Positions 2,040 to 60,755 of a DNA stretch of 64,000 nt are shown here, in pieces. A program made the translations under genes and the position numbers. Position 1 is the stretch's first letter. Each line of letters opens with the position of its first letter. This stretch comes from a virus. The notes under the pieces were generated by a model. It was not told where the DNA came from and made no database searches. It was given only the letters and a program-made list of their open reading frames with translations. The stretch spans positions 1 through 64,000 of IMG/VR virus record IMGVR_UViG_3300035704_000002, one strand, 5' to 3'.

Positions 2040-2360
2040 TCACAGCGCGGCCGGCGAGGTGTCCGGGTCGGGCACCCACGGTGTGCAGATTTCGCACAGC
2101 ATCGCGATCGGGCCGTCACCACGGCGGGCAAGGCTGAGGCATTCCCACTTGGTGTACTCGTCACGGTCGCCTTCCAGCACGAAGCCGACGATGTCGCCGC
2201 ACCGCGCACATAGCAGGCTGTCCACCTGTTCGCCGATGACGCCGAGAGCTTCCCGGTACGGCTCCGGCAGATCATGGTACTGATCGGCGATGCAGCCCGG
2301 TTCGGTGCGCGAGAACGGTGGTTCCTCGAAGTAGATGAATTCGATCGCGGTGAGGGACAC
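2040..2360 (-). CDS. hypothetical Zn-ribbon protein
   Basis: Two CxxC pairs, operon packing. Confidence 0.6.
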   Translation of the reverse strand: MSLTAIEFIYFEEPPFSRTEPGCIADQYHDLPEPYREALGVIGEQVDSLLCARCGDIVGFVLEGDRDEYTKWECLSLARRGDGPIAMLCEICTPWVPDPDTSPAAL

Positions 2361-2366
2361 CGGTTT

Positions 2367-2696
2367 CTACCCTTCTGTTGGATCAACCCGGAAGATCGAA
2401 CCGTTCTGGCGCAACCACAGTGCCAGTCGCAGGTACTCCCGGTAGTCCTCCCGGCGGCAGGCGCGCTGCGCCGCCAGCAGGTCGGCACGGGGCCGGCCAG
2501 CGTCGGCGGGAATGGCGGACTTCGGGCGGTAGCGCCGTAGACGCCCCTGAAGGGTGCGGCTGTTGTGCAGTTTCTTGGTGGGTGTACCGACTCGGGCCAG
2601 CTTCGCCCGGACGCTCGGTCGTGTCGAGTAGGGGTCCACCATCACGACGGGCATGTAAACGCACCACACGCCTGACGGTTGTTCGCACTCCGGCAC
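2367..2696 (-). CDS. hypothetical protein
   Basis: Operon packing, CxxxxxxC near the N-terminus. Confidence 0.5.
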   Translation of the reverse strand: MPECEQPSGVWCVYMPVVMVDPYSTRPSVRAKLARVGTPTKKLHNSRTLQGRLRRYRPKSAIPADAGRPRADLLAAQRACRREDYREYLRLALWLRQNGSIFRVDPTEG

Positions 2697-2771
2697 TTGA
2701 TGCGCAGCCCATCCAGCTCGACCGGCGCCAGTTCCCGATCGGGCGGCGTTGGTGATGTGGCCATCGGCATC

Positions 2772-3011
2772 TCAGATCGGTTCGATGTGGACGGATTCCA
2801 CTCGGATGTGAACGCGCGCCCGGCTGGTCGGCATACCGGCCGGCAGTTGGCCGACGCGGTGGAACGACACTGGCGTGACCTTCACGACGCGCGTTCCGTC
2901 CGGCAGTGTGATCAGGCTGGCGTTGAACTGGCCGAGCGCGCTCAGGATGTCGATCGGTTCGCCGGTGATCGTCTCGGCGGTAACCAGGAACTCGATCGAG
3001 TTCGGCGTCAT
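2772..3011 (-). CDS. hypothetical protein
   Basis: ATGA overlap with the upstream gene. Confidence 0.6.
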   Translation of the reverse strand: MTPNSIEFLVTAETITGEPIDILSALGQFNASLITLPDGTRVVKVTPVSFHRVGQLPAGMPTSRARVHIRVESVHIEPI

Positions 3012-3334
3012 GGCGACACCGCGAGGGTGGCGGCCAGCCGGTCGCGGTGCGCGGTCAACTCCGTGATCACCTTGTTCAGGTCGGCGACGATCTGCCCGGT
3101 GAACTCGCGTACCTTCGCGTCGACTTCCCCGCTCGGGTAGCAGGTTCCGAACGCCACCGTGTTGACCGTGACGGTCTCGCCGGACACGTCCACATACTCA
3201 GCGTTCAGGCCGTGGTGATGGAACGGCGCGCTGGCCAGCACGCCGAGCTGGCGATGCAAGCTCGGGTGCCGACAGCACTCCAGCGGCGCGCGGGTGTCGA
3301 GCACCCACCGGGACGCGGTGCCCTCCCGGTTCAT
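3008..3334 (-). CDS. hypothetical protein
   Basis: ATGA overlaps on both sides. Confidence 0.6.
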   Translation of the reverse strand: MNREGTASRWVLDTRAPLECCRHPSLHRQLGVLASAPFHHHGLNAEYVDVSGETVTVNTVAFGTCYPSGEVDAKVREFTGQIVADLNKVITELTAHRDRLAATLAVSP

Positions 3335-3597
3335 GCGATCACGGTCCAGCAGGCTTCGATCAGGCCGATGTCGCTGCGAACGGATTGGGCGTCGGTGACC
3401 AGTTCCCGCGCGCTGGCCAGGAATCGGCGCTTACCGTCGCTCGTGGACGCGGCCAGCGCGCTGTTCACCGCGTCGTCGGCCTGCGCCAGCAGATCGGCCT
3501 CCTGCGCGATCAGCTCGGCGTGGCGGGCGTCCAGCGCGGTGGTCGCGCTGGCCAGGTCGGTGATGGACGACAGGCCGGTCAGGGTTGGGGCGGACAT
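3331..3597 (-). CDS. hypothetical helical protein
   Basis: GGAGG RBS before ATG 3597. Confidence 0.65.
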   Translation of the reverse strand: MSAPTLTGLSSITDLASATTALDARHAELIAQEADLLAQADDAVNSALAASTSDGKRRFLASARELVTDAQSVRSDIGLIEACWTVIA

Positions 3598-3638
3598 GAT
3601 GACCTCCGGGGTGATTGATGGGGTGAAGTTCGCGGGGG

Positions 3639-3911
3639 TTAGCACGCCGCGATGGCGGCCTGGATCAGCGCCCTGTAGCGGGCGCGCAGTCGGATGGAGA
3701 AGCAGTGCAGGCACAGGTGCGAGAGCTTGACCTCATTCGCCAGCAGCACATCGCAGGTGTCGGCGTCATCGGGCACCTCGGCGATCGTGATGGCGGTGGC
3801 GAGCCGAGCGGCACCGTGGCGGCACAGGATGTGCTGCGCGTCGACACCGTGGGCCAGGTGGACCTTGCGGTCCTCGCTGATGCGCCCGATGGTGGTCCGG
3901 TATTCGCTCAT
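3639..3911 (-). CDS. hypothetical protein
   Basis: Leaderless start after a motif promoter. Confidence 0.7.
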   Translation of the reverse strand: MSEYRTTIGRISEDRKVHLAHGVDAQHILCRHGAARLATAITIAEVPDDADTCDVLLANEVKLSHLCLHCFSIRLRARYRALIQAAIAAC

Positions 3912-3917
3912 GTTGCT

Positions 3918-3946
3918 AGTCTAGCCTAGCTATTGCGGCTTGTCTA
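3918..3946 (-). promoter_or_regulatory. Conserved promoter/operator copy, leaderless
   Basis: TAGACA-AGCCGCAATAGCTAGGC-TAGACT-6 nt-ATG(3911). Confidence 0.85.
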
Positions 3947-3964
3947 GTCTTGCCGTGGGACGCG

Positions 3965-3996
3965 GCAGCGCCCGACGCACGGACGCCGGGCGCTGC
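3965..3996. terminator. GC-rich hairpin, probable terminator
   Basis: gcagcgcccg / cgggcgctgc inverted repeat. Confidence 0.55.
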
Positions 3997-4005
3997 TGAT
4001 GCGGG

Positions 4006-4080
4006 CTACTTGCCGTTGCCCTTGGCCTTTTCCAGAATCTCGTTGGCTTCCTCGATCTCGGTGCCGCCACCGGGGATCAT
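4006..4080 (-). CDS. 24-aa small peptide MIPGGGTEIEEANEILEKAKGNGK
   Basis: GAAAGG RBS, GC3-biased codons, hairpin just downstream. Confidence 0.5.
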   Translation of the reverse strand: MIPGGGTEIEEANEILEKAKGNGK

Positions 4081-4145
4081 GCGTACCGCCTTTCCTCTCG
4101 AACATCACGCCTGACGGTTGCCGGACGCGAAAACAAATGGGTGCA

Positions 4146-4484
4146 TCAATGGTCGTCGTCGGGTGGTGGTCCGATCAGTTGGCGGCGTGTTGCCGCCAGA
4201 TCGGTGACACCGCGAGCGATCCAGGCGGCTTCAGTGGTCGGACACGGCCACGGGCCGCCGTAGCCACAGGGGCACCGGTCCATACCCGCGTACACATCGG
4301 GCGCGATGCACGTGGTCGTGAGTCGCTTCGCGATCTCGGCCAGTCGCGTCGTCAGGCGCTCCGTCTCGTCAGCCAGCCGTTCGGCCGCGCGCGCCACGTT
4401 CAGCACTTCGGGCTGATAGGTCGCGGTGGGCATGTCGAAATCATGCGTTCGGCGCACGATGTCGATGTCGTCGCTGATCGACAT
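4146..4484 (-). CDS. hypothetical protein
   Basis: CPCG...WPCPT motif, operon packing. Confidence 0.6.
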   Translation of the reverse strand: MSISDDIDIVRRTHDFDMPTATYQPEVLNVARAAERLADETERLTTRLAEIAKRLTTTCIAPDVYAGMDRCPCGYGGPWPCPTTEAAWIARGVTDLAATRRQLIGPPPDDDH

Positions 4485-51070: not shown

Positions 51071-51192
51071 GCCGACCAGCGTAGGACGCGCCGGGGGCGC
51101 TCGTGCGCACCTGGGCGCGGCGTACCCGACCAGCCGCAACGCCCCGTTACCCTCGCGCTCGTCCGTGATCGTGGGAGTGGGAGGTGCCCGGC

Positions 51193-52800
51193 GTGGCGCA
51201 GCGGCGGTTCCTACCCGCGCTCCGGCGCATCTTCGCGCCCGCCCTGGAAAGCAAAGGTCTGCCCGAGCAGGTGCGCGCCAGTTCCCAGGCGTACCTCGTG
51301 CCTGGCGTCCCGTACTCGCAGAACTGGTCCACTCAGCGTGCCGTGCGCGAGGCGTACGAGCCGAATCCGCTGGTGTATCGGGCGATCGAGGTACTGGCCA
51401 CCAACGCGATCAGCCAGCGCATCGTGTTGCGCCAGGGTGACCCCGAGGAAGGCCCGATCATCGACACCGCGCACGACCCGACGCGGCTGCTCTACGTGTT
51501 CAACCGCCGCGCCAACCCGTGGGAGACCGCCAGGGTGTTCCGTCACCGGTTGGTGGCGCAGTGGCTACTGTCCTCACGCGGGCTGTTCGTGGAGATCATC
51601 CGCACACGCGGCGGCGGCATCGCCATGGTCAACCTGCTGGACCCCGACCTGGTCGACATGATCCCCGACCGGACCGACCCGATGCACGCCTTCCGGGTAC
51701 GCACCCCGAACTCCTCCACCGGATTCGACTACCTACCCCGCTTCGATCCGGCCAAGACCGCGCGCGAACAGCCCGCCTCCATCCTGTGGATGCGCAACCC
51801 GCACCCGACTGTGGCGTGGCAGGGCATGAGCCCGGTGCAGGCCGCCGGCCTGCCGATCGACCTGGATCGTTACGCCCGGCTCTACAACCGCCGATTTCTA
51901 CAGAACGACGGCCGGCCCGGCGGCCTGCTCTCGATCAAGGGTGTCGTGGCGCCGGCCACCATGGAGCTGATCCAGAGCCAGTTCATGGGCGGCCCCGACT
52001 CGGCCGGCCGTACCACCGTGATCAACGCCGACTCGGTGTCCTACGCGGACACCAGCGGCTCGCCCCGTGACACGCTCTGGGGCGACACGATGGACCGCAA
52101 CCGGCGCGAGATCTGCACCGCGTTCGGGGTGCCCGAGAGCGTGCTGGGCGACGCGTCCGGCCGCACCTTCTCCAACGCCGACGCCGAATACGCGATGTTC
52201 TGGGAACACCGCATGCTGCCGCTGGTGCGGGCGCTAGATGACCAACTCGACATCCTCACCGAGATCATGGGGCCGGATGTCTATTTGCGTCACGATGTGT
52301 CCAAGGTGTGGGTGCTGGGTCGCTACCAGCGCGAGCACGAGGACCGTCTGGCCGCCGACCAGCAGGCCGGCTACCGCACCATCGATGAGGTGCGGGTGGC
52401 CAAGGGCGAGAAGCCCCAGAACGTGCCCGCCACCCGCGTGCTGTGGATACCGCCGGGCAAGCTCGCCGTGGCCGACGCGAGTCGTCCGCACGACGCCGAG
52501 GAAGCCGCCGCCGCGCCGATCGGCGGCCCGGTCAACGCCGGCTCGGCCGGCTCCGGCGCCGCTCAGGCCGGCGTCAACCACCTGTCCGGCTCGGGCTACA
52601 GCGCCGGAGACACCGACTATCTGGGCAGCGGCAAGGGTGGCGGCGGCAACTCCGACCTGCGTTTGCTGTCCGGCTCCGGCGGCGGCCGGGCCGGTGGCGG
52701 CTTCGAGAACATGGGCGAGATCGACCCGGACGAACTGGAGGGTAAGCAGAGCGGCCCGCGACGCTGGGGCTCCCCCAGTGGAGCCCGCATCGCCGGTTAA
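51193..52800 (+). CDS. Phage portal protein (HK97-like)
   Basis: NPLVYRAI, ANPWET, GMSPVQAA, FLQNDGRPGGLL, ICTAFGVPESVLG, TFSNA, TIDEVR; GGAGG RBS. Confidence 0.92.
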   Translation: MAQRRFLPALRRIFAPALESKGLPEQVRASSQAYLVPGVPYSQNWSTQRAVREAYEPNPLVYRAIEVLATNAISQRIVLRQGDPEEGPIIDTAHDPTRLLYVFNRRANPWETARVFRHRLVAQWLLSSRGLFVEIIRTRGGGIAMVNLLDPDLVDMIPDRTDPMHAFRVRTPNSSTGFDYLPRFDPAKTAREQPASILWMRNPHPTVAWQGMSPVQAAGLPIDLDRYARLYNRRFLQNDGRPGGLLSIKGVVAPATMELIQSQFMGGPDSAGRTTVINADSVSYADTSGSPRDTLWGDTMDRNRREICTAFGVPESVLGDASGRTFSNADAEYAMFWEHRMLPLVRALDDQLDILTEIMGPDVYLRHDVSKVWVLGRYQREHEDRLAADQQAGYRTIDEVRVAKGEKPQNVPATRVLWIPPGKLAVADASRPHDAEEAAAAPIGGPVNAGSAGSGAAQAGVNHLSGSGYSAGDTDYLGSGKGGGGNSDLRLLSGSGGGRAGGGFENMGEIDPDELEGKQSGPRRWGSPSGARIAG

Positions 52801-55261
52801 CGGCCAAGACCTGCCCGCCATCGCGCCCGCCGACATCACCACCACCGAAGCCCATCCCGCCCCGGCGCCCGGACCCGATCGGGAAGCGCTGGTGCTGGCC
52901 AGCCGGGCACGCATCGACGCCGCCCAGGCCACGATGACCGGCGCCCTGGATGGCTACCTGTCCCGGCTGGACGGCGTGGTCACCTCGCGCGTCAGGGGGC
53001 CGCGTGTGCGCAAGGGCACGCGCTGGTGGGGCGAGAACGCCAAGAGCCTGCACACGCCGATCTCGCTGGGCGGCGTGACCGGCCTGGAGACCAAGGCAGT
53101 GGACACCGGGTACGCGCTGCCGGACAAGCTGGTCGCCGAGGCGGCCGACGTGGCCCGCCCGATCGCGCAGCGAATCGCGCACGACGCCGCGCTGGCCACC
53201 GCCCGGTCGCTGAGTGTGCGTGTGCCCGGCGATCCGGCCGATATCTCGTTCGCGGTGGACCATGTCGCCCTGGAGCAGGCCGTGGATCGGGCCGTGAGCC
53301 GCGTCCAGGCGGTCGCCGACCACCACGCCACCCTGATCCGTGACGCCATCGGCCACGCCGACGCGCACGCCGAAACACTGGACGAACTGCTGGGCCAGGT
53401 GCAGGCCGCGCATGCCCAGGGCGCCGCCTGGGTGCGCATGGCCGGCCGCGCGGTGACCAACGGCCTGATCCAGGATGTGTCCACCGGGCAGGCGCGCGCC
53501 CTGGGCGTCACCCACGCGCAGTGGCTCTGCGTTGCGGCGGACACCAGGGTTTGGGCGCCAGGCGCGATCAATGTCGCTCAGCGATGGAGTGATGAGGGAC
53601 TACTTCGGATCGCGACAGCGCGGACGGTAGGCACCAGAAATATCCTGTCCGTCACCCCGGATCACCCGCTCCTGACTCAACGCGGTTGGATTTCGGCGCG
53701 CGAGATTCACCCAGGAGATCGACTCGTTCGCAGCGCCTTCGCCCAGAGGGAATCGGGGGGTAACCCACACATAGAGAATCTTCCAGCCAAGATCAGCGAG
53801 ACGTTCCGCGCGGCGGCGCAACTTCGCCCGACCGAGCGGATTATGCGCGTTGCGCCATACTTCGATAGCGACAGGCGCGGCAGCTATGTCGATGTTGTAC
53901 CGATCGACAGCGAGCTGCGGGACTGTCTGCAATCCGCGTTCCATGAGCCACGCGCTCAACTGCTGCTCACCCTCTCCGACCTTGACTTGGAGGGCTTGCT
54001 TGAGCTTCGCTCGTTCCGCCACCACGGCATCAGGTTGGCGTCGTCCAACGTTGAGTCCCGCCAGAAAAACGTTGCGCCCAGCAGTAATGTCGACAGCCTC
54101 ATGAGCGATACGGTTGAGACCAGCGGCCGAGTGGCTCCGCCAGGTGATGCCACGCTCCGTTACGATGAGCTTGATCATTTTGAGGGAAGTGTCGAATTCG
54201 ACCGCCAGTGCTCGCGCGGCACGCCCCGCGACGTATCCGGCGACGATGCCTTCCTTGTCCAGTACGCGACGGTTCCAGCGCAGCGCTTGCGCGGCCCTGG
54301 ACTGCTCGGTAGCTTCGGGGTGAGTCGCGAAGCGGATACGAACGGCTTGCTCGGGGGATCGCAGGACACCAATGTCGCGCAGCCTTCTCCTGATGGTTTC
54401 CGCGCTGACTCCCTCCAGAGTTTCCGCGATCTCGCGGGGCGATTCTCCGATTTGGTAACGCTGGACCAGGTTGTCGATGTCGAGTTCGATCCGACCCCTT
54501 GTCACGTGTACGACCTCCAGACGGAAACTGGCTGGTTCGTAGCCGATGGTTACGTCGTACACAATAGTCGCCGTGACGAACACGTGCGCCCCACCCACGT
54601 GCGGGCCGACGGCCAGGTGCGCGAACTGGGCGCGCCGTTCCGAGTGGGCACGGTCGACCTCGCCTATCCGTGCGATCCGGCCGGACTACCCGACACCTGG
54701 CCCGAGGTGGCCGGCTGCCGATGCGGCCTCCTGTTCCGCGCGCCGGCCGCCGACCACGCCCGCGCCCTGGGCACCCTGTCGACCACCCGGCCCAGCCGCG
54801 CTGGGCCGGGTGCGTTGGCCCTGCTGGCGGCCGTGGCGGCTGGGGGCATCGCGGTACACGAGGTGGCCGCGCCGTTGGGGGTGGCCGGTGGCCCGGACGG
54901 CGCGCCGCCACCATCCCGGCAAGTCGTGACCCACCAGTCGGTGGTCGGCTACCGCGCGCTGGAGCAGGAGCTGGCGGTGACGCCGGGGCAGTGGCTGCGC
55001 CTGCCCGGCCCGATCGTGCTGGGGTTGAGTGCGCCGAGCCTGTTCGCCGAGGGCGCGCCGGTGCTCTCGGTGCTGATTCCGGCTGGCGTCACGCTGACCG
55101 TGGCCGGCGGCCTGGCGGTACTGGCGGCCGGCACGGCGCTGGAAGTGCTCTCCAACGGTCCGACCGGCGTACAGGTGCAGGTCGCGGCACCGCAGGCGTC
55201 CTACTCGAAACCTACTCGAAACCTTGCCGCCACGGACGCGATCACCGCGCCGGCCACGTGA
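52778..55261 (+). CDS. Head morphogenesis protein (Mu gpF / SPP1 gp7-like) containing an intein; start uncertain
   Basis: Spliced junction QWL|SRRDEHVRPTH..ADGQVR...PF.VG...YPCDP...CRC. Confidence 0.82.
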   Translation: MEPASPVNGQDLPAIAPADITTTEAHPAPAPGPDREALVLASRARIDAAQATMTGALDGYLSRLDGVVTSRVRGPRVRKGTRWWGENAKSLHTPISLGGVTGLETKAVDTGYALPDKLVAEAADVARPIAQRIAHDAALATARSLSVRVPGDPADISFAVDHVALEQAVDRAVSRVQAVADHHATLIRDAIGHADAHAETLDELLGQVQAAHAQGAAWVRMAGRAVTNGLIQDVSTGQARALGVTHAQWLCVAADTRVWAPGAINVAQRWSDEGLLRIATARTVGTRNILSVTPDHPLLTQRGWISAREIHPGDRLVRSAFAQRESGGNPHIENLPAKISETFRAAAQLRPTERIMRVAPYFDSDRRGSYVDVVPIDSELRDCLQSAFHEPRAQLLLTLSDLDLEGLLELRSFRHHGIRLASSNVESRQKNVAPSSNVDSLMSDTVETSGRVAPPGDATLRYDELDHFEGSVEFDRQCSRGTPRDVSGDDAFLVQYATVPAQRLRGPGLLGSFGVSREADTNGLLGGSQDTNVAQPSPDGFRADSLQSFRDLAGRFSDLVTLDQVVDVEFDPTPCHVYDLQTETGWFVADGYVVHNSRRDEHVRPTHVRADGQVRELGAPFRVGTVDLAYPCDPAGLPDTWPEVAGCRCGLLFRAPAADHARALGTLSTTRPSRAGPGALALLAAVAAGGIAVHEVAAPLGVAGGPDGAPPPSRQVVTHQSVVGYRALEQELAVTPGQWLRLPGPIVLGLSAPSLFAEGAPVLSVLIPAGVTLTVAGGLAVLAAGTALEVLSNGPTGVQVQVAAPQASYSKPTRNLAATDAITAPAT
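53528..54565 (+). mobile_element. Intein 1 (346 aa) in the MuF-like protein
   Basis: Cys1 CVAADTRV, block B VTPDHPLLTQRGW, blocks F/G HVYDLQTETGWFVADGYVVHN then Ser; lower GC. Confidence 0.9.
53600..54505 (-). CDS. HTH-HTH plus Vsr/DUF559-like endonuclease encoded antisense inside intein 1
   Basis: GGAGG-8 nt-GTG; two HTH repeats; E.QL..WL..RG....PQ..VDRYNIDIA...VAIEV...H...L.DLGWKILYVW. Confidence 0.82.
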   Translation of the reverse strand: MTRGRIELDIDNLVQRYQIGESPREIAETLEGVSAETIRRRLRDIGVLRSPEQAVRIRFATHPEATEQSRAAQALRWNRRVLDKEGIVAGYVAGRAARALAVEFDTSLKMIKLIVTERGITWRSHSAAGLNRIAHEAVDITAGRNVFLAGLNVGRRQPDAVVAERAKLKQALQVKVGEGEQQLSAWLMERGLQTVPQLAVDRYNIDIAAAPVAIEVWRNAHNPLGRAKLRRRAERLADLGWKILYVWVTPRFPLGEGAANESISWVNLARRNPTALSQERVIRGDGQDISGAYRPRCRDPK

Positions 55262-55565
55262 ACTGACCGGCCTCGTTGCCGTGCACGACCTTCTGCACCC
55301 AGTGGGTATCGGTGCCATCCAGCCACACCTGTCCGTTGACGGGCGTATCCGGGTCGATGGTGCGCGAGCCGTGCGGCAGCCCCCACAGCCGCACGATCAG
55401 CATCGGGAAGACCTGGCCCGGCGCCACGGCGTTGCCTCGGTGGATCAGTTCGCCGGCACCGTTGCGCGCCCGGCGCTGGTGCTCGATCTGGCGTATATCC
55501 TCGACGGTGAGTTGGTAGAGCACGAGTCGGGGCGGATTGGGCAGCGAAGCGTCCTGGGTTCCCAT
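55242..55565 (-). CDS. hypothetical phage protein
   Basis: GN....G...PMLIVR...VNGQVWLDG.D..W...WP.R; TACCGT 6 nt before ATG. Confidence 0.65.
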   Translation of the reverse strand: MGTQDASLPNPPRLVLYQLTVEDIRQIEHQRRARNGAGELIHRGNAVAPGQVFPMLIVRLWGLPHGSRTIDPDTPVNGQVWLDGTDTHWVQKVVHGNEAGQFTWPAR

Positions 55566-55671
55566 GTCCGCACGGTAGTCGGACACCTCGATCGTGTCGG
55601 CATGCCGGCCGCGCCGTCGCGCTGGGCTAGATTCACCGCGACGATCACAACTATTACCCAGGAGTAACACG

Positions 55672-56955
55672 GTGGGAGCTGCACCCGAGGTCGCCGACCC
55701 GTGGTCATCCCTGCGTCACACGCTCGAACGCACCAACACCTGGTACACGATGGCGTCGGGACTGGTCAGCGGTGCGCGCAGCCTCTACGCGCACTGGCGG
55801 GAACACAGCACCTTCACCGTGTCGGTGTCCAGCGCCGATCCCGGCTACCAGGACGTGCACGACTGGCTCGTGAACGCCGTACCGCCGGCCCGGCGACGGG
55901 CGCTGATGGTGTGCTCCGGCCAGCCCTATGCCGACTCCTCCGACGCCGTGCCCGCGTCGGACTCGCCGCCGACCGCCAGCGCACCGGTGCGCCTGGCCTA
56001 CGACTCCGGCCACGAACAGACCGTGCTGGTGTCCGGCCGGGCGGTGCGGGTGGCGTTGGCGCGTGGCGAGGACGACAGCGCCGGCTCGGGCGGCATGCGA
56101 CGTGTCCCGCCGGACCGGATCGTGTTCCGATGCCCCAGCCAGGCGGCCCAGCAGGCCGTCATCGACCACCTGATCACGATCATCGGTGACCGTTCGAACC
56201 GGCGCCGGACACCCCAACTGCACGTGCTCTCCTCGTGGGGCGGCTGGACGCGCCGTTCCGACATCCCGCCGCGCAGCCTGGAATCGGTTGTGCTGCGTGC
56301 CGGCCAGATGGAGGAGTTGATCTCTGATCTGGGCGAGTTCCTGAGCGCCGAGACCGAGTACATCCGCAGGGGTCAGCCCTGGCACTACGGCTGCCTGCTG
56401 CAAGGTCCGCCCGGCACCGGCAAGACCAGCATCGTCAAGGCGCTGGCCAGCCACTTCGGCCTGGATCTGTGGCACGTGCCGCTCGGCGACCTCATCAGTG
56501 ACACCAGCCTGTCCACCCTGCTGGCGCAGGTGCATCCGCGTTCCATGCTGCTGCTGGAGGACGTGGACATCTACGCCGCCGCGACCAGCCGCAAGGCCGA
56601 GGCGGAACAGGTGTCGCTCTCGGGTCTGCTCAACGCGCTGGACGGGGTGATCACGCCACACGGCCTGATCATCGTACTGACCAGTAACGAGCCGGCATCC
56701 CTCGATCCCGCGCTGGTCCGGCCCGGCCGCATCGACCGGGTGGAGAACGTCGACCACCTCACCGACGAACAGGCACACCGGCTGTTCGTCACCTTCTACC
56801 AGCAGCCTGCGCGGCTGACCTGGACCATCGCGCCCGAGACCGCCAGCGCCGCCGTCATCGGCGTGTTCAAACACCACCTGCGCGACCCGGACGCGGCCGA
56901 GCGGGCGCTGTGCCGCGCACTGGCACACCAGCCTCCGCTCCCGGTACCGGTGTAG
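55672..56955 (+). CDS. AAA+ ATPase (BCS1-like)
   Basis: GPPGTGKTS, LLLEDVD, SLSGLLNALDG, LDPALVRPGRID; CAGGAG RBS. Confidence 0.88.
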   Translation: MGAAPEVADPWSSLRHTLERTNTWYTMASGLVSGARSLYAHWREHSTFTVSVSSADPGYQDVHDWLVNAVPPARRRALMVCSGQPYADSSDAVPASDSPPTASAPVRLAYDSGHEQTVLVSGRAVRVALARGEDDSAGSGGMRRVPPDRIVFRCPSQAAQQAVIDHLITIIGDRSNRRRTPQLHVLSSWGGWTRRSDIPPRSLESVVLRAGQMEELISDLGEFLSAETEYIRRGQPWHYGCLLQGPPGTGKTSIVKALASHFGLDLWHVPLGDLISDTSLSTLLAQVHPRSMLLLEDVDIYAAATSRKAEAEQVSLSGLLNALDGVITPHGLIIVLTSNEPASLDPALVRPGRIDRVENVDHLTDEQAHRLFVTFYQQPARLTWTIAPETASAAVIGVFKHHLRDPDAAERALCRALAHQPPLPVPV

Positions 56956-57011
56956 CCCCGGATCACCCAGTCGGCGAGCCTGACCGAGAAACCCCGCCGC
57001 ACGCTGCCACG

Positions 57012-60000
57012 ATGTCGCGCGTGGCGAACCGAGACCCCGAAGCAGACGGCCCGCGCACCTCGGGCATGGTGGCGCTGATGCCCACGGCGGCCGATGCCCA
57101 ACGTCTCGCCGTGGACGGCGGCGAAGACCCCGACCAGTTGCACCTCACGCTGGCCTACCTCGGTGACAACGCCACCGGCCTGCCGCCGGAAACCCAGCAG
57201 GCACTCCATCAGGTGATGGGGCACCTGGCAGCCGAGACACCGCCGGTGGACGCCCGCGCCGCCGGGCATCTGCTGCTGAATCCCGACGGTGGCCCGGACG
57301 GTGACCGCACGCCCGTGGCGGCCTACCTGATGTCCGACTCCGACGCGCTCACCCCGCTGCACGAGGCGGCGAAGGCGGCGGCCGGCGCGGCCGACCCGGC
57401 CCTGACCCAGTTCTCGCCGTTCATCCCGCACGTGTCCGGCGCCTACGACCGCGACGCCGGAGCGCTGGGCTACGCCGGACCGGTCAGCTTCGACCGGATG
57501 CGGGTAGCGATCGGCGACGGGCACACCGACTACCCGCTGACCGGCCCGGCGTCCGGGGGCACCGATCCGGATGCCGACGGCGACATTGATGACGGCACCG
57601 GCGTGAACACCGACGACGACCCCACCGTGGGCGATGACGGCGCCAGGTCCGACAAGCCGGAGGGCAAGTCCGTGATCAGCCTGGCCGAGTTGGTGGAGCT
57701 GGCCGAACTGACCAACCTGGTGAGCGAAACCAAGGGCGACGCCCCCGACGGCGGCAACTCCGACGCGCCGCCCCACTCGATGCCCGACGGCAGCTACCAG
57801 ATCAACCATCCCGGCCAGCTCAAGCAGGCCATCAACGCGCTGACCGCCTACCAGGTCGCCAAGGGCAAGCGCGGGGCGCTGCGCAAGCATGTGATGAAGC
57901 ACGCCGCGCGATTGCACGCGCAGAACATGGTGCCACAGTCCATTCAGGACGAAGGCGACGACGACCCCGACGCCAAGAAGGACGCCGCGCCGGAGCCGGT
58001 CGAGACGAAGAACGTCGTGGCCACCCAGGCCGGCGTGGCCAGGTACGGCAAGCCGATCGGGACCGTGCTGGGCGCGCCGCGTGATGCCGCCGCCGCGCAG
58101 GCGCAGAAGGACACCGGCGCGGTCACCGCCTACCAGGATCTGCTCGCCGGTAACACGCGGAGCGTGGAACCGCTGAACACGATGGACCCCAGCAGCCTCG
58201 AAGCACTCACGCGCGTCGCCTACAGCTACAAATCCTCCGATCCGAAGGTCGTGGCACTGCGCGTGCAACTGGCCAACGAGCTGGCCAAACGCGGCCTGAA
58301 GGTCACCAGTTTCGGCGCCCTGGGCGGTGGCGGACCGACCAAGCCCGCCAGGGGCAAGGCGCCGGTCAAGCCGAAGGCGCCCGCGAAGCCGGCCCCGACT
58401 CCAGCGCAGGTTGCCGGCGCGCGCGGCGTGGCCGCGCCGCACGTCCAGGCCAAGGGTGATCTGGACGTCACGGAGGTGGAGTACAAGACGAAGTACACCG
58501 CTGATGACCGGCGCACCATGGCCAAGAAGGGGCAGGCGCTGCCGGATGGTTGCCTCTCTGGTGACACGTTGGTGGCAACTCGCAATGGCTCCGTCCGCAT
58601 TGACGCCCTCCCGTCTGAGTGCGAATTGCTAACTGATCACGGGTGGACGCAAGCTACTGTCTGCGGATTTGGAGTACAGAAACTGCGAGCTGTTGAACTG
58701 TTTGACGGTGTGCGAACCGAGATCGTCCACGCTACGTCAGGTCACAGATGGCTGATTGATGGTGGCGACTGGAGACTCACAGACGATCTGATCGTTGGCG
58801 ACCGCATTCCCCATGTTGATGTATCGAGCAATGATTTCAATGCCGACCTCGTCAACACGGCCCATCAGCGTATTGCACGTAAGGCAAAGCAGACCCCGCA
58901 CCATTCCAGTGCGATGGTCGTGATCAACCTGGAAGCCGGTCCATGTACGACCGGTACGAGTGTTGGCACGATTGATCTTCGGGATGCGATGACAGATAGC
59001 ACACAGGCCGCGCTGACTGGCAAGAAGTGCGTCGAACTCCGCTTGTCCAATGCTGTACTTGCGCCGCAGCATTCCATCTCGGCGACGCATCCAGCGCTCA
59101 TCGGCAACATCCACCCGTTCAGCGCTGGTGCGTGCTCTGTTTTGGCAGCAGAAACGGCAGTCGGTTCGCCGACGCTGATTGCGGATATAGAAATCGGTAT
59201 GCGGTCGTTCGGCGCCGCAGGTGCGGCAGGTGACAAAACCGACATAGCCGACTGGTACACCCTTGGCGTAAACGGACACGGTCATCCCACGAATGCTACC
59301 CGTTCGTGGGAGGTTGTGGGTATCAAAGCCACGCGCCGCATCGAGGAGGTTTTTTGCGCACTGGTTCCAGACTTGCACCGGTTTGTACTAGCCAGTGGCG
59401 TTTTGACCGGAAATAGTTATCCGATCATGGACCGGTCCGACCTGGACTCCGCGATCCGACTACGCGGACGGCACAGCGAATACTCCGCCGATACGGTCGT
59501 CAAGCACATCGTCAAACGCGCCAAGGCGATCGACGCCACCGACATGCTGCCCGACGGCATGGCCGCCGGGGTGCAGGAGAAGCAACTGTCCTGGGACGGC
59601 GCGCCGGACGCGTTCACGGCCGGCGTGCTGCTCGGCCTGTCCGGCCTGGACACCGACGAAGCGCTGGAGCTGAAGGCCGGCCCGCCGGGACACACCTTCG
59701 CCTCGCCCGACCCGAACGCCGCACGGCTGCGCCGGTACTGGGTGTTCGGCAAGGGACGCGCAAAGATCAACTGGGGTGTTCCGGGCGACTTCGACCGCTG
59801 CGTCGCGGAACTCACCAAGTACGTCGGCGACCGCGCCAAGGGCTTGTGCAACATCTACCACCGCTCCGCGCTCGGCGTCGCGCCCGGCCAGGAGGACAAG
59901 CCCGGCCACGCCGTCGCCAAGGCCGTGGGTGCCATGGTGGGTGCCAAGAAGTCCGAGGACGACGAGACCGAAACCAAGGCGCTGACCGCGTTGTGGGTAC

Positions 60001-60755
60001 GCGACCCGGCCGCCGTGGACGGGTGGCGTGCCTACGCGCCCGCGTGGCCACTGGATGACGACCTGATCGCGGAAATGAAAGCGTTGCGTCCCAACAAGCC
60101 CAGCGGTGGCTACGTCGGGGCCGACGACGAGGAGGACAGCCCCGACGGCAACGCGCCCGACGATACGAACAACACCGACTCGGGCACCGACGACGACGTA
60201 CTGTCCGCGCTGGACAACTATGCCGCCATGGCACCACAGATCAGCCCCGAAGACGCCTACATGCAGGCCATCGGCGACCAGATCCCCTGGCAACTGGCCG
60301 CCACCGGCGATCTGGTCAACCCCGACTCGCCCGGTGGTGAAGTGCCTGTGCTACAACGCGAGGAAGCGCGGTTCGGTGAGGCCGGACCGTCCGACGCGGC
60401 CGTGGACGACCTGTCCGGCACCGACGAGGTACCCGACGCCGACGACGCCGGGGCGGATGACGACCCCACCTTCCCCGATGACGGTGATCTGAGCTTCGAC
60501 CCGGACGATACGAACGAGACCGATGACGGCACGGATGGCCCGGATGACGGCGCCGGGGACACCGGCGACGGTTCGAACGAGAGCGACACCGGCGCCGCCA
60601 TTCCGGAGGTGGCCGAACTGCTGGCCGACCTGATGGCCGAACAGGACACGGTGGCCGCGCCGACGGATGACGACGATGCTGGCGAGCCGGAGGAAGACAG
60701 CACGGCGATCACTACCGCCCCGAAGCGCCAGGCCGCCGCCAGTGTTACCGCGTAA
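57012..60755 (+). CDS. Large modular head-associated protein: 2H phosphoesterase, two PDGSY(P/Q)I modules, intein, acidic tail
   Basis: LHLTLAYLG and FIPHVS 2H motifs; MPDGSYQI; ALPDG|SYPI; RLRRYW...KINWGVPGDFDRC; D/E-rich C-terminus. Confidence 0.78.
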   Translation: MSRVANRDPEADGPRTSGMVALMPTAADAQRLAVDGGEDPDQLHLTLAYLGDNATGLPPETQQALHQVMGHLAAETPPVDARAAGHLLLNPDGGPDGDRTPVAAYLMSDSDALTPLHEAAKAAAGAADPALTQFSPFIPHVSGAYDRDAGALGYAGPVSFDRMRVAIGDGHTDYPLTGPASGGTDPDADGDIDDGTGVNTDDDPTVGDDGARSDKPEGKSVISLAELVELAELTNLVSETKGDAPDGGNSDAPPHSMPDGSYQINHPGQLKQAINALTAYQVAKGKRGALRKHVMKHAARLHAQNMVPQSIQDEGDDDPDAKKDAAPEPVETKNVVATQAGVARYGKPIGTVLGAPRDAAAAQAQKDTGAVTAYQDLLAGNTRSVEPLNTMDPSSLEALTRVAYSYKSSDPKVVALRVQLANELAKRGLKVTSFGALGGGGPTKPARGKAPVKPKAPAKPAPTPAQVAGARGVAAPHVQAKGDLDVTEVEYKTKYTADDRRTMAKKGQALPDGCLSGDTLVATRNGSVRIDALPSECELLTDHGWTQATVCGFGVQKLRAVELFDGVRTEIVHATSGHRWLIDGGDWRLTDDLIVGDRIPHVDVSSNDFNADLVNTAHQRIARKAKQTPHHSSAMVVINLEAGPCTTGTSVGTIDLRDAMTDSTQAALTGKKCVELRLSNAVLAPQHSISATHPALIGNIHPFSAGACSVLAAETAVGSPTLIADIEIGMRSFGAAGAAGDKTDIADWYTLGVNGHGHPTNATRSWEVVGIKATRRIEEVFCALVPDLHRFVLASGVLTGNSYPIMDRSDLDSAIRLRGRHSEYSADTVVKHIVKRAKAIDATDMLPDGMAAGVQEKQLSWDGAPDAFTAGVLLGLSGLDTDEALELKAGPPGHTFASPDPNAARLRRYWVFGKGRAKINWGVPGDFDRCVAELTKYVGDRAKGLCNIYHRSALGVAPGQEDKPGHAVAKAVGAMVGAKKSEDDETETKALTALWVRDPAAVDGWRAYAPAWPLDDDLIAEMKALRPNKPSGGYVGADDEEDSPDGNAPDDTNNTDSGTDDDVLSALDNYAAMAPQISPEDAYMQAIGDQIPWQLAATGDLVNPDSPGGEVPVLQREEARFGEAGPSDAAVDDLSGTDEVPDADDAGADDDPTFPDDGDLSFDPDDTNETDDGTDGPDDGAGDTGDGSNESDTGAAIPEVAELLADLMAEQDTVAAPTDDDDAGEPEEDSTAITTAPKRQAAASVTA
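58551..59414 (+). mobile_element. Intein 2 (288 aa)
   Basis: Cys1 CLSGDTLV, block B HATSGHRW, blocks F/G EEVFCALVPDLHRFVLASGVLTGN then Ser; lower GC. Confidence 0.88.
58737..59285 (-). CDS. Endonuclease VII-like (His-Me finger) nuclease encoded antisense inside intein 2
   Basis: CRTC...CRFC; LRRKYSI...EF..LL..Q.GLCAIC...VDHDHRTGMVRGLLCLTCN. Confidence 0.9.
   Translation of the reverse strand: MTVSVYAKGVPVGYVGFVTCRTCGAERPHTDFYIRNQRRRTDCRFCCQNRARTSAERVDVADERWMRRRDGMLRRKYSIGQAEFDALLASQRGLCAICHRIPKINRANTRTGRTWTGFQVDHDHRTGMVRGLLCLTCNTLMGRVDEVGIEIIARYINMGNAVANDQIVCESPVATINQPSVT

Follow-up and report, generated by a model that had tools for sequence, protein, structure and literature searches.

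Two inteins in head genes of a soil phage probably carry their homing endonucleases as separate antisense genes

Results

Two inteins share their DNA with antisense nuclease genes

We examined the first 64,000 nucleotides (hereafter the window) of the virus record IMGVR_UViG_3300035704_000002, a sequence of 128,202 bp with direct terminal repeats, of which the window is the first half and which is best represented in a soil metagenome. Two inteins lie there within 6 kb, both in plus-strand open reading frames (ORFs) of the head-gene block (Table 1). In each, a long insert separates the two halves of the Hint splicing domain, and the minus strand of that insert encodes a nuclease, Vsr-like in intein 1 and of the endonuclease VII family in intein 2. 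Each antisense ORF (minus strand; 53600..54598 and 58737..59378) stands in exact codon register with the sense frame.

Table 1. Inteins, antisense genes, associated signals and host genes in the window
Feature	Position	Strand	Description	Remarks
Intein 1	53528-54565	+	346 aa; C1 ... VVHN, +1 Ser	inside host gene 1
Antisense gene 1	53600..54505	-	301 aa; helix-turn-helix (HTH) + Vsr/DUF559/MTES_1575-like	GTG start 54505-54503; stop 53602-53600
Putative ribosome-binding site, GGAGG	54514..54518	-	8 nt before GTG of antisense gene 1	sequence reading
Intein 2	58551-59414	+	288 aa; C1 ... LTGN, +1 Ser	inside host gene 2
Antisense gene 2	58737..59285	-	182 aa; endonuclease VII family	ATG start 59285-59283; stop 58739-58737
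Candidate leaderless promoter of antisense gene 2	59286..59310	-	TAGCAT 59298-59293	motif match only
Host gene 1	52238..55261	+	MuF-like head morphogenesis/minor capsid; 1007-aa ORF	ORF list + translation
Host gene 2	56910..60755	+	protease/scaffold-like head protein, 1281 aa	ORF list + PHROG matches

Intein 1 is inserted between WL and SRRDEHVRPTH, and the flanking extein motif (WL/S..D..VRP.H, the slash marking the insertion point) is common to the window and Mycobacterium phage Sejanus. It opens with Cys1 and carries block B as TPDH (T43, P44, H46), block F as HVYDL (H326, V327, L330) and a terminal HN (N346). Every one of C1, T43, P44, H46, H326, V327, L330 and N346 is invariant in the nine-member alignment of intein 1 with eight relatives, in which the +1 residue is Ser in the window and Cys in the other members. 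Scores against Pfam Intein_splicing (E 3.8e-7; 30.5 bits, cut-off 35.8) and NCBIfam TIGR01443 (13.2 bits, cut-off 15.6) stay below threshold, and NCBIfam intein-containing families match weakly; the shortfall is probably due to the long insert that splits the domain. Pfam finds only Hint pieces in the sense frame, the middle being without a family match.

Intein 2 lies between ALPDG and SYPIMD, with Cys1, block B as TSGH (T62, H65), block F as EEVFCALV, and a terminal GN (N288) followed by Ser at +1. Across an alignment of 61 sequences, C1, T62 and H65 are invariant and N288 nearly so. The AlphaFold model has a Hint fold over residues 1-92 and 250-288, at a predicted local distance difference test score (pLDDT) of 95-99; residues 96-248 score below 50 and have no confident structure. 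In a Foldseek search with this model, every top match is an intein: 1am2, 4o1r and 1zd7 (probability 1.00, E 4e-5 to 9e-5). Pfam gave no match in the sense frame of intein 2, and tblastn of the sense intein against phages returned only seven weak records, none with the antisense layout.

A first-pass annotation, made from the letters of the window alone, had described intact Hint blocks in both inteins, sense middles devoid of a nuclease motif, and antisense genes in codon register with the inteins. All three descriptions are borne out by the residues, alignments, models and coordinates given here. Its suggestion that the two elements arose independently is likewise upheld, since the two Hint domains show no sequence relationship (BLASTP E 0.38) and the two nuclease families are likewise unrelated. 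Both inteins would be expected to splice, given their intact residues and their insertion in conserved motifs of essential head genes.

The antisense products belong to two nuclease families

The product of antisense gene 1 comprises tandem HTH modules (approximately nt 53996-54493) and a nuclease domain (approximately nt 53633-53986). A phmmer search of 1.84 billion representatives found 1451 relatives at E<=1e-3, 719 of them at E<=1e-10. We aligned 67 of the 1451 with the window protein; 48 of these 68 members match MTES_1575 at E<=0.01 (best 1.4e-10), six match DUF559, most match HTH families, and N204, D206 and E215 are invariant. The AlphaFold model of the window protein (mean pLDDT 92.5) places residues 174-291 on Vsr (1cw0_A) with a Z score of 10.3 and a root-mean-square deviation of 2.7 over 108 residues, followed by the catalytic domain of the EDxHD homing endonuclease I-Bth0305I (3r3p, Z 9.9), the DUF559-like 3hrl (Z 9.4) and 1vsr (Z 9.0). 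Foldseek by itself ranked 3r3p first, at only E 0.017, and the profile of the family alignment matches 3hrl at E 3e-4. As modelled, the protein has a Vsr-type restriction-endonuclease-like fold.

Splicing blocks are mirrored in this gene and in the signal before it. The block F codons for D-L-Q, read on the minus strand, yield the GGAGG ahead of its start, and block B (PDHPL) lies opposite the codons for what is predicted to be the final β-strand of the nuclease (residues 279-283, ERVIR).

Antisense gene 2 is recognised directly. Its product matches Pfam Endonuclease_7 (PF02945) at E 5e-17 (62 bits, cut-off 23.6) and PHROG endonuclease VII families down to E 8e-25, with the domain at approximately nt 58845-59069 and the arrangement CxxC...VDHDH...CxxCN, read in translation as CAIC, VDHDH and CLTCN, which we take to be the catalytic and zinc residues. 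The profile and structure matches thus agree with the first-pass assignment of the minus strand to Vsr/DUF559-like and endonuclease VII nucleases. At less than 60% identity, antisense gene 2 matches 1361 phage records, and those listed are annotated as endonuclease VII, HNH or homing endonuclease. The best among the phage matches listed is F-CphI of Synechococcus phage S-PM2 (31% identical across 77% of the query), which resembles the antisense product in belonging to the endonuclease VII family and is annotated as a homing endonuclease in its record. F-CphI is presumably free-standing, adjoining the intron-containing psbA gene and not lying inside an intein.

How this second gene is started is suggested by a motif alone: TAGCAT stands 7 nt before its ATG, inside an 8-bp inverted repeat (59310-59303 / 59293-59286), and may fit a leaderless start. 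At the same 7-nt spacing, the related locus L097 (below) has TAGGCT; L098 has nothing comparable. A terminator scan gave three terminator-like sites against 2.7 expected, and is uninformative for this kind of phage.

In relatives of intein 1, selection acts on the antisense frame

A tblastn search with antisense gene 1 matched 97 phage records, and we inspected 14 loci. In 14 of 14, the homologue lies antisense and in register to a head gene adjoining the portal gene, and the recurrence that the first-pass annotation had suspected is therefore plain: the same layout exists in other phages, here of Gordonia, Mycobacterium, Pseudomonas, Klebsiella and Salmonella (Jerseyvirus), and in one enrichment-culture virus. 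Among five loci compared, the antisense frame scored above the sense frame (140 vs 79+36, 86 vs 38, 71 vs 39, 85 vs 67 and 73 vs 69 bits). The gene is intact in all 15 members (the 14 loci and the window), at 233-301 aa, with its stop opposite intein residues 2-25. Its start codon, ATG in 12 and GTG in three, mirrors the His codon before block F (VYDL/VYNL), and a Shine-Dalgarno-like purine run (GGAGG, GAGG or similar), complementary to the block F codons, precedes it by 8 nt in 15 of 15. Early antisense-frame stops that we had suspected in L001 and L004 proved to lie upstream of the conserved start, and both genes are intact. Wherever the 14 inspected matches coincide with an annotated feature, this is the host gene, and in one record an unnamed hypothetical ORF. 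The record of Salmonella phage vB_StyS-sam (L006) lists a 134-aa hypothetical protein (ORF43) at NC_073177.1 25514-25915, a portion of the antisense gene, and notes neither that it is a nuclease nor its link with the intein.

Eight Jerseyvirus head morphogenesis genes (L006, L008, L011-L016) allowed selection to be compared on both strands. Variable sites at sense codon positions 1, 2 and 3 number [101,64,208] in the N-extein, [19,11,78] in the C-extein and [0,1,8] in Hint-C, and [86,20,41] in the 164 central intein codons. The ratio of non-synonymous to synonymous substitution rates (dN/dS) on both frames across homologues, a comparison already named in the first-pass annotation, comes out for the antisense frame: in the intein centre it is 0.07-0.16 antisense vs 0.84-1.70 sense. 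In the exteins the sense ratio is 0.02-0.13, and intein codons 1-47 have ratios of 0.14-0.50 in either frame. These sequence comparisons show purifying selection on the antisense frame in the relatives; for the window's own copy, the same selection is to be presumed by extension from these distant relatives.

The intein-1-type domain and its nuclease occur as a pair at three sites: HPN/CRC in MuF genes, WL/S in the MuF genes of the window and Sejanus, and PCxx/CAK in a dCMP-deaminase-like gene of virus Rctr197k. The coding sequence at this third site (L003; KX853510.1 616-1968) is annotated 'putative head morphogenesis protein' but looks dCMP-deaminase-type (HSEEN and PCVAC motifs), and an intein-1-type intein with an antisense nuclease splits it; the annotation probably derives from similarity to the intein.

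The Jerseyvirus inteins themselves are far less diverged than their exteins. Between L008 and L014, for example, Hint-N has a dS of 0.26 vs a saturated extein dS, and a dN of 0.09 vs 0.30. This low divergence fits recent horizontal spread among these phages.

Relatives of intein 2 show the same reversal at the Hint borders

Three host proteins that have their intein at the insertion point of intein 2 came from a protein search with that intein region (P0006-P0008, 37-41% identical), and pattern scans with a four-protein alignment gave 87 loci; the site, ALPDG/C...TGN/S(Y or F), is occupied in P0006-P0008 and in L097-L100. Three of the 87 loci, L097, L098 and L099, hold an antisense endonuclease VII ORF 54-56% identical to that of the window (E 3e-59 to 7e-47), the inteins of L098 and L099 differing by one base. 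In the 127-codon nuclease core shared by the window, L097 and L098, antisense identity is 58-63% and sense identity 24-31%, and the differences at antisense positions 1, 2 and 3 are [36,32,71], [35,35,84] and [43,40,75]. The pattern is reversed in Hint-N and Hint-C, where sense identity is 40-55% vs 19-32% antisense.

The gene of L097 ends just beyond the nuclease domain, before block B, and so the longer tail of the window's gene is probably run-on. L098 and L099 (L098:2672-3475, minus strand) have an extra N-terminal Cys/His-rich segment (CKIEGC...GLCSPHYQRLWRHG), which extends their antisense gene into the mirror of Hint-C. For P0006-P0008, of which we have the protein only, the sense peptides are compatible by eye with a mirrored VDHDH, and we do not count this as evidence.

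L100 fills the same head-gene site differently. Within its host gene (2144-4216), an endonuclease VII gene (2799-3368, plus strand, 189 aa) lies on the same strand in a shifted frame, and its product is 30% identical to that of antisense gene 2. Different members of one nuclease family thus occupy the same slot, some antisense and some on the sense strand. More widely in this Hint family, Pfam finds LAGLIDADG_3 in the sense frame of 47 of 61 inteins and nothing in that of intein 2, and alternative-frame nucleases occur only in inteins without an in-frame LAGLIDADG domain.

Could the antisense similarity instead be a by-product of sense conservation, the real endonuclease being an unrecognised domain in the sense frame? 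In-register frames mirror each other, and some antisense similarity would be expected on that ground; the sense motif DFHGD...VDVV also looks conserved. However, this motif is the mirror of the nuclease core VAVEV...YNIDIA, and the central dN/dS (about 1 sense vs about 0.1 antisense), the identities in the endonuclease VII core, and a sense middle that matches no family and, in intein 2, has a pLDDT below 50 all speak against it. We consider a sense-frame endonuclease extremely improbable.

Open frames are cheap in this genome and costly elsewhere

How much weight should the antisense ORFs bear as such? In the exteins of the two host genes, in-register antisense frames are open in 210/210, 190/231, 547/547 and 296/446 codons, which tells against reading anything into their mere presence: open antisense frames are the norm in a phage of ~70% guanine-plus-cytosine (GC) content, and the ORFs alone prove nothing. 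The case accordingly rests on the family matches and the comparative evidence, which are strong.

The first-pass annotation had reasoned that a nuclease gene need only lack TTA, CTA and TCA codons to enter an intein backwards without breaking it, such codons being rare at high GC. For the GC-rich phage of the window this stands: with extein codon usage, the probability that the sense frame stays open is 0.48 across antisense gene 1 and 0.81 across antisense gene 2. It does not carry over to the Salmonella phages. In the 50% GC Jerseyviruses, the probability of an open sense frame across the antisense gene is 2.8e-4, and that of an open antisense frame, given the sense protein, is 8e-6; chances this small mean that filtering or selection is needed there.

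A control concerned the content of such ORFs. Of 128 alternative-frame ORFs of >=100 aa drawn from 60 related inteins, only four match Pfam, all four to Endonuclease_7, and such ORFs are thus normally empty.

Host genes and surroundings

In host gene 1, residues 776-843 match PHROG head-morphogenesis and portal-MuF families. Its true start probably lies downstream of 52238: the first ~200 residues of the ORF (52238-52900) look like translation of a wrong frame, with many Pro, Arg, Ala, Cys and Trp residues, and overlap an ORF (51184..52800) that uses another frame. Host protein 2 begins with a region that resembles 2H phosphoesterases and RNA ligases, and for which a 'head maturation protease' family is a further match. 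This region (56910-57560) has a PHROG 'RNA ligase' match at E 8e-30 and carries HLTL and HVSG motifs, which are typical of 2H phosphoesterases and make an unusual domain with which to open a head protein.

GC content drops to 0.55-0.65 inside both inteins, from ~0.70 in the surroundings. By codon position, GC1 and GC3 are both ~0.6-0.7 inside the inteins, and do not distinguish the coding strand. Neither intein had a blastn match in the phage collection, and pattern scans of viral contigs, run with P0003 and P0004 singly, gave no relatives. In a second soil metagenome (run X2), short contigs are identical to the exteins, with almost zero depth inside either intein (53505-54407 and 58622-59223); no contig of that run bridges either intein, which says nothing about an intein-free allele. 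Listed contig joints in X2 and a further soil run (X1, probably the source sample) look spurious, with sides of 21-27 letters at 80% likeness.

Discussion

The layout of these elements is real and kept by selection, as the relatives of both inteins confirm. We interpret them, with good though incomplete confidence, as cis-splicing inteins whose homing endonuclease is a separate antisense gene in the slot of the Hint domain. The nuclease gene would lie codon against codon on the opposite strand, between the N- and C-terminal Hint halves, and the head-gene mRNA would be translated through its mirror, giving a filler loop of ~150-250 residues without a fold of its own. The Hint halves would then fold and splice out the whole insert. 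The nuclease, meanwhile, would be made from its own antisense message: that of gene 1 from the GTG behind the GGAGG in the mirror of block F, and that of gene 2 from its ATG, possibly on a leaderless mRNA. Its expression might then be uncoupled from the late head gene, as the first-pass annotation proposed. It would cut intein-free head-gene alleles of co-infecting phages, whose repair would copy intein and nuclease together. Expression, splicing and cleavage specificity are presumed on these grounds for both elements, and their origin may lie in a mini-intein invaded by a free-standing nuclease gene.

A role in homing receives indirect support from sequence comparison, through the nuclease and Hint pair at three sites and the Jerseyvirus inteins that are less diverged than their exteins. 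The antisense genes could also be real nuclease genes for which the intein loop is only a safe harbour, and which act on another target, in recombination or in superinfection exclusion, without any homing of these inteins. Endonuclease VII relatives are indeed common as free-standing phage genes, as the 1361 records show, and the different endonuclease VII of L100, in another frame of the same intein, means that nuclease and intein are exchangeable. Against this, the Vsr-like nuclease travels with the same Hint family to three insertion sites in two host genes, and fills the slot exactly in every member, reading from block F in the direction of the intein's N-terminus. Alternative-frame nucleases of the intein-2 family, moreover, appear only where an in-frame LAGLIDADG domain is absent, and the best listed phage match of antisense gene 2 is an annotated homing endonuclease. 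A mere safe harbour is, in our judgement, unlikely.

Several observations weigh against our interpretation. On the protein side, antisense gene 1 taken alone matches Pfam MTES_1575 (along with HTH families) at E 2e-5 and 24.9 bits, below the cut-off of 38.2; the Pfam and NCBIfam intein models recognise nothing in intein 2; and the penultimate residue of intein 2 is Gly (GN) and not the His of HN, although most of its relatives likewise have GN. On the side of expression, antisense gene 1 starts with GTG, the start of antisense gene 2 is ambiguous between the ATG at 59285 and an upstream GTG at 59378, the stretch is found in no listed RNA run, and no sigma-70-like promoter was found on either strand, in a scan that is uninformative for this kind of phage. 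Finally, selection on antisense gene 1 was measured in other lineages, at 27-34% protein identity to the window copy; the window phage has no close relative in the searches made; and an intein-free allele of neither host gene was recovered, which leaves the target site undefined.

Some of these points would suit relics: genes that once worked in homing and are now unexpressed or inactive in this phage, open only through its GC-rich codon usage. Open in-register frames are the norm in this genome, neither an RNA run nor a close relative of the lineage is at hand, and the GTG of antisense gene 1 could be taken in the same spirit. Yet both proteins are full length compared with their relatives, the catalytic and zinc-binding motifs are kept along with the GGAGG or TANNNT signals, and the differences that separate the window from L097 and L098 fall mainly at antisense position 3 (71 and 84, vs 32-36 at positions 1 and 2). 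The GC content of the inteins, well below that of the genome, implies elements not yet ameliorated. Decay in this phage strikes us as a still smaller possibility than the safe harbour, and functional homing genes remain our preferred explanation.

The architecture itself is not new. The first-pass annotation had left open whether it was absent from the literature, and it is not: inteins with antisense nucleases are already published in a preprint by Gosselin, Arsenault and Gogarten (bioRxiv 10.1101/2025.01.02.630785), and the gain here is incremental. According to the text of that preprint, 63 of 784 PhagesDB inteins have non-canonical endonucleases, namely in-frame HNH, antisense LAGLIDADG, antisense VSR-like, and endonuclease VII-like 'in frame 3'; minor capsid proteins are among the hosts, and the authors propose that inteins were invaded by free-standing nuclease genes. 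Intein 1 corresponds to their antisense VSR-like kind as there described: a minor capsid (MuF-like) gene is host to a full intein, the splicing blocks flank an antisense ORF, the sense frame stays open, and the sense insert has no recognisable fold. The match to Vsr also agrees (1CW0 at Z 10.6 in the preprint, Z 10.3 here), and the Gordonia phages Angelicage ('Angelicase' in the preprint) and Affeca, which its text names, are among our matches. Intein 1 differs in its MuF site, which is WL/S..D..VRP.H and not HPN/CRC, and in belonging to an uncultured 128-kb soil phage. Additional to the preprint's text are the members from phages of Salmonella, Klebsiella and Pseudomonas, the one inside a dCMP-deaminase gene, the codon-position and dN/dS evidence, the conserved Shine-Dalgarno sequence in the mirror of block F, and the overlap of the last nuclease strand with block B. 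We did not find the Vsr-like type outside actinophages in the text of the preprint, whose supplements may list more.

Intein 2 resembles the 'frame 3' kind of the same preprint, as its text presents it, in that an endonuclease VII family gene forms an ORF of its own within an intein whose frame is open. L100 is exactly of that same-strand, out-of-frame layout, and at the very insertion site of intein 2. In the window, L097, L098 and L099, by contrast, the endonuclease VII gene is antisense and in register; the protease/scaffold-like head protein as host is a further difference. The antisense orientation of endonuclease VII was not found in the preprint's text, and cases may be listed in its supplementary tables.

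Other systems share parts of this design. Antisense LAGLIDADG inteins (Ssp DnaX and a Chloroflexus SpoVR-like protein), which the preprint's text credits to Gorbalenya 1998 and Gogarten 2002, likewise have a homing endonuclease ORF on the strand opposite a contiguous intein, but with another nuclease family and in cellular genomes. The 'fractured genes' of Dassa et al. (2009, PMC2677866) are described as carrying Vsr-like or GIY-YIG genes between split-intein halves, mainly in phages. They resemble antisense gene 1 in the Vsr-like superfamily and in that the nuclease is a gene by itself, placed where an intein has its endonuclease; according to that description, the nuclease there is on the same strand and the host gene is broken into two ORFs joined by trans-splicing, whereas in the window the host frame is open and the intein contiguous. 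A third case, described by Arsenault et al. (2025, PMC11855218), is the ShiLan out-of-frame HNH insertion in a phage methylase. There too, the host gene reads through an insertion that conceals a nuclease ORF in a different frame, and the case differs, as described, in lacking an intein or splicing domain and in having the nuclease on the same strand.

Beyond what is published, we can ask whether the antisense layout is an old, co-adapted two-strand unit that reaches far beyond actinophages, and not a transient accident in which a nuclease gene entered a mini-intein backwards. The Vsr-like start and ribosome-binding site in the mirror of block F, the last β-strand opposite block B, and a pair that moves as one element (to two MuF sites and a dCMP deaminase) would suit such a unit, and the antisense endonuclease VII intein would then be a second, independent solution, not yet in print. 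We offer this tentatively, and would rate it at slightly less than an even chance. If true, at least ~40 codons would serve two functional proteins at once.

To the known cases the window adds a phage in which two such elements, whose nucleases belong to different families, lie within 6 kb. It also adds an endonuclease VII gene in antisense orientation, and relatives that show, quantitatively, selection switching strand exactly at the borders of the Hint domain. Some 750-900 nt of each element code two proteins on opposite strands, and the antisense nuclease genes have been missed by annotation. The layout is relevant to how long overlaps between opposite strands can persist, and to the way inteins acquire their endonucleases, in the view that splicing came first and the nuclease later.

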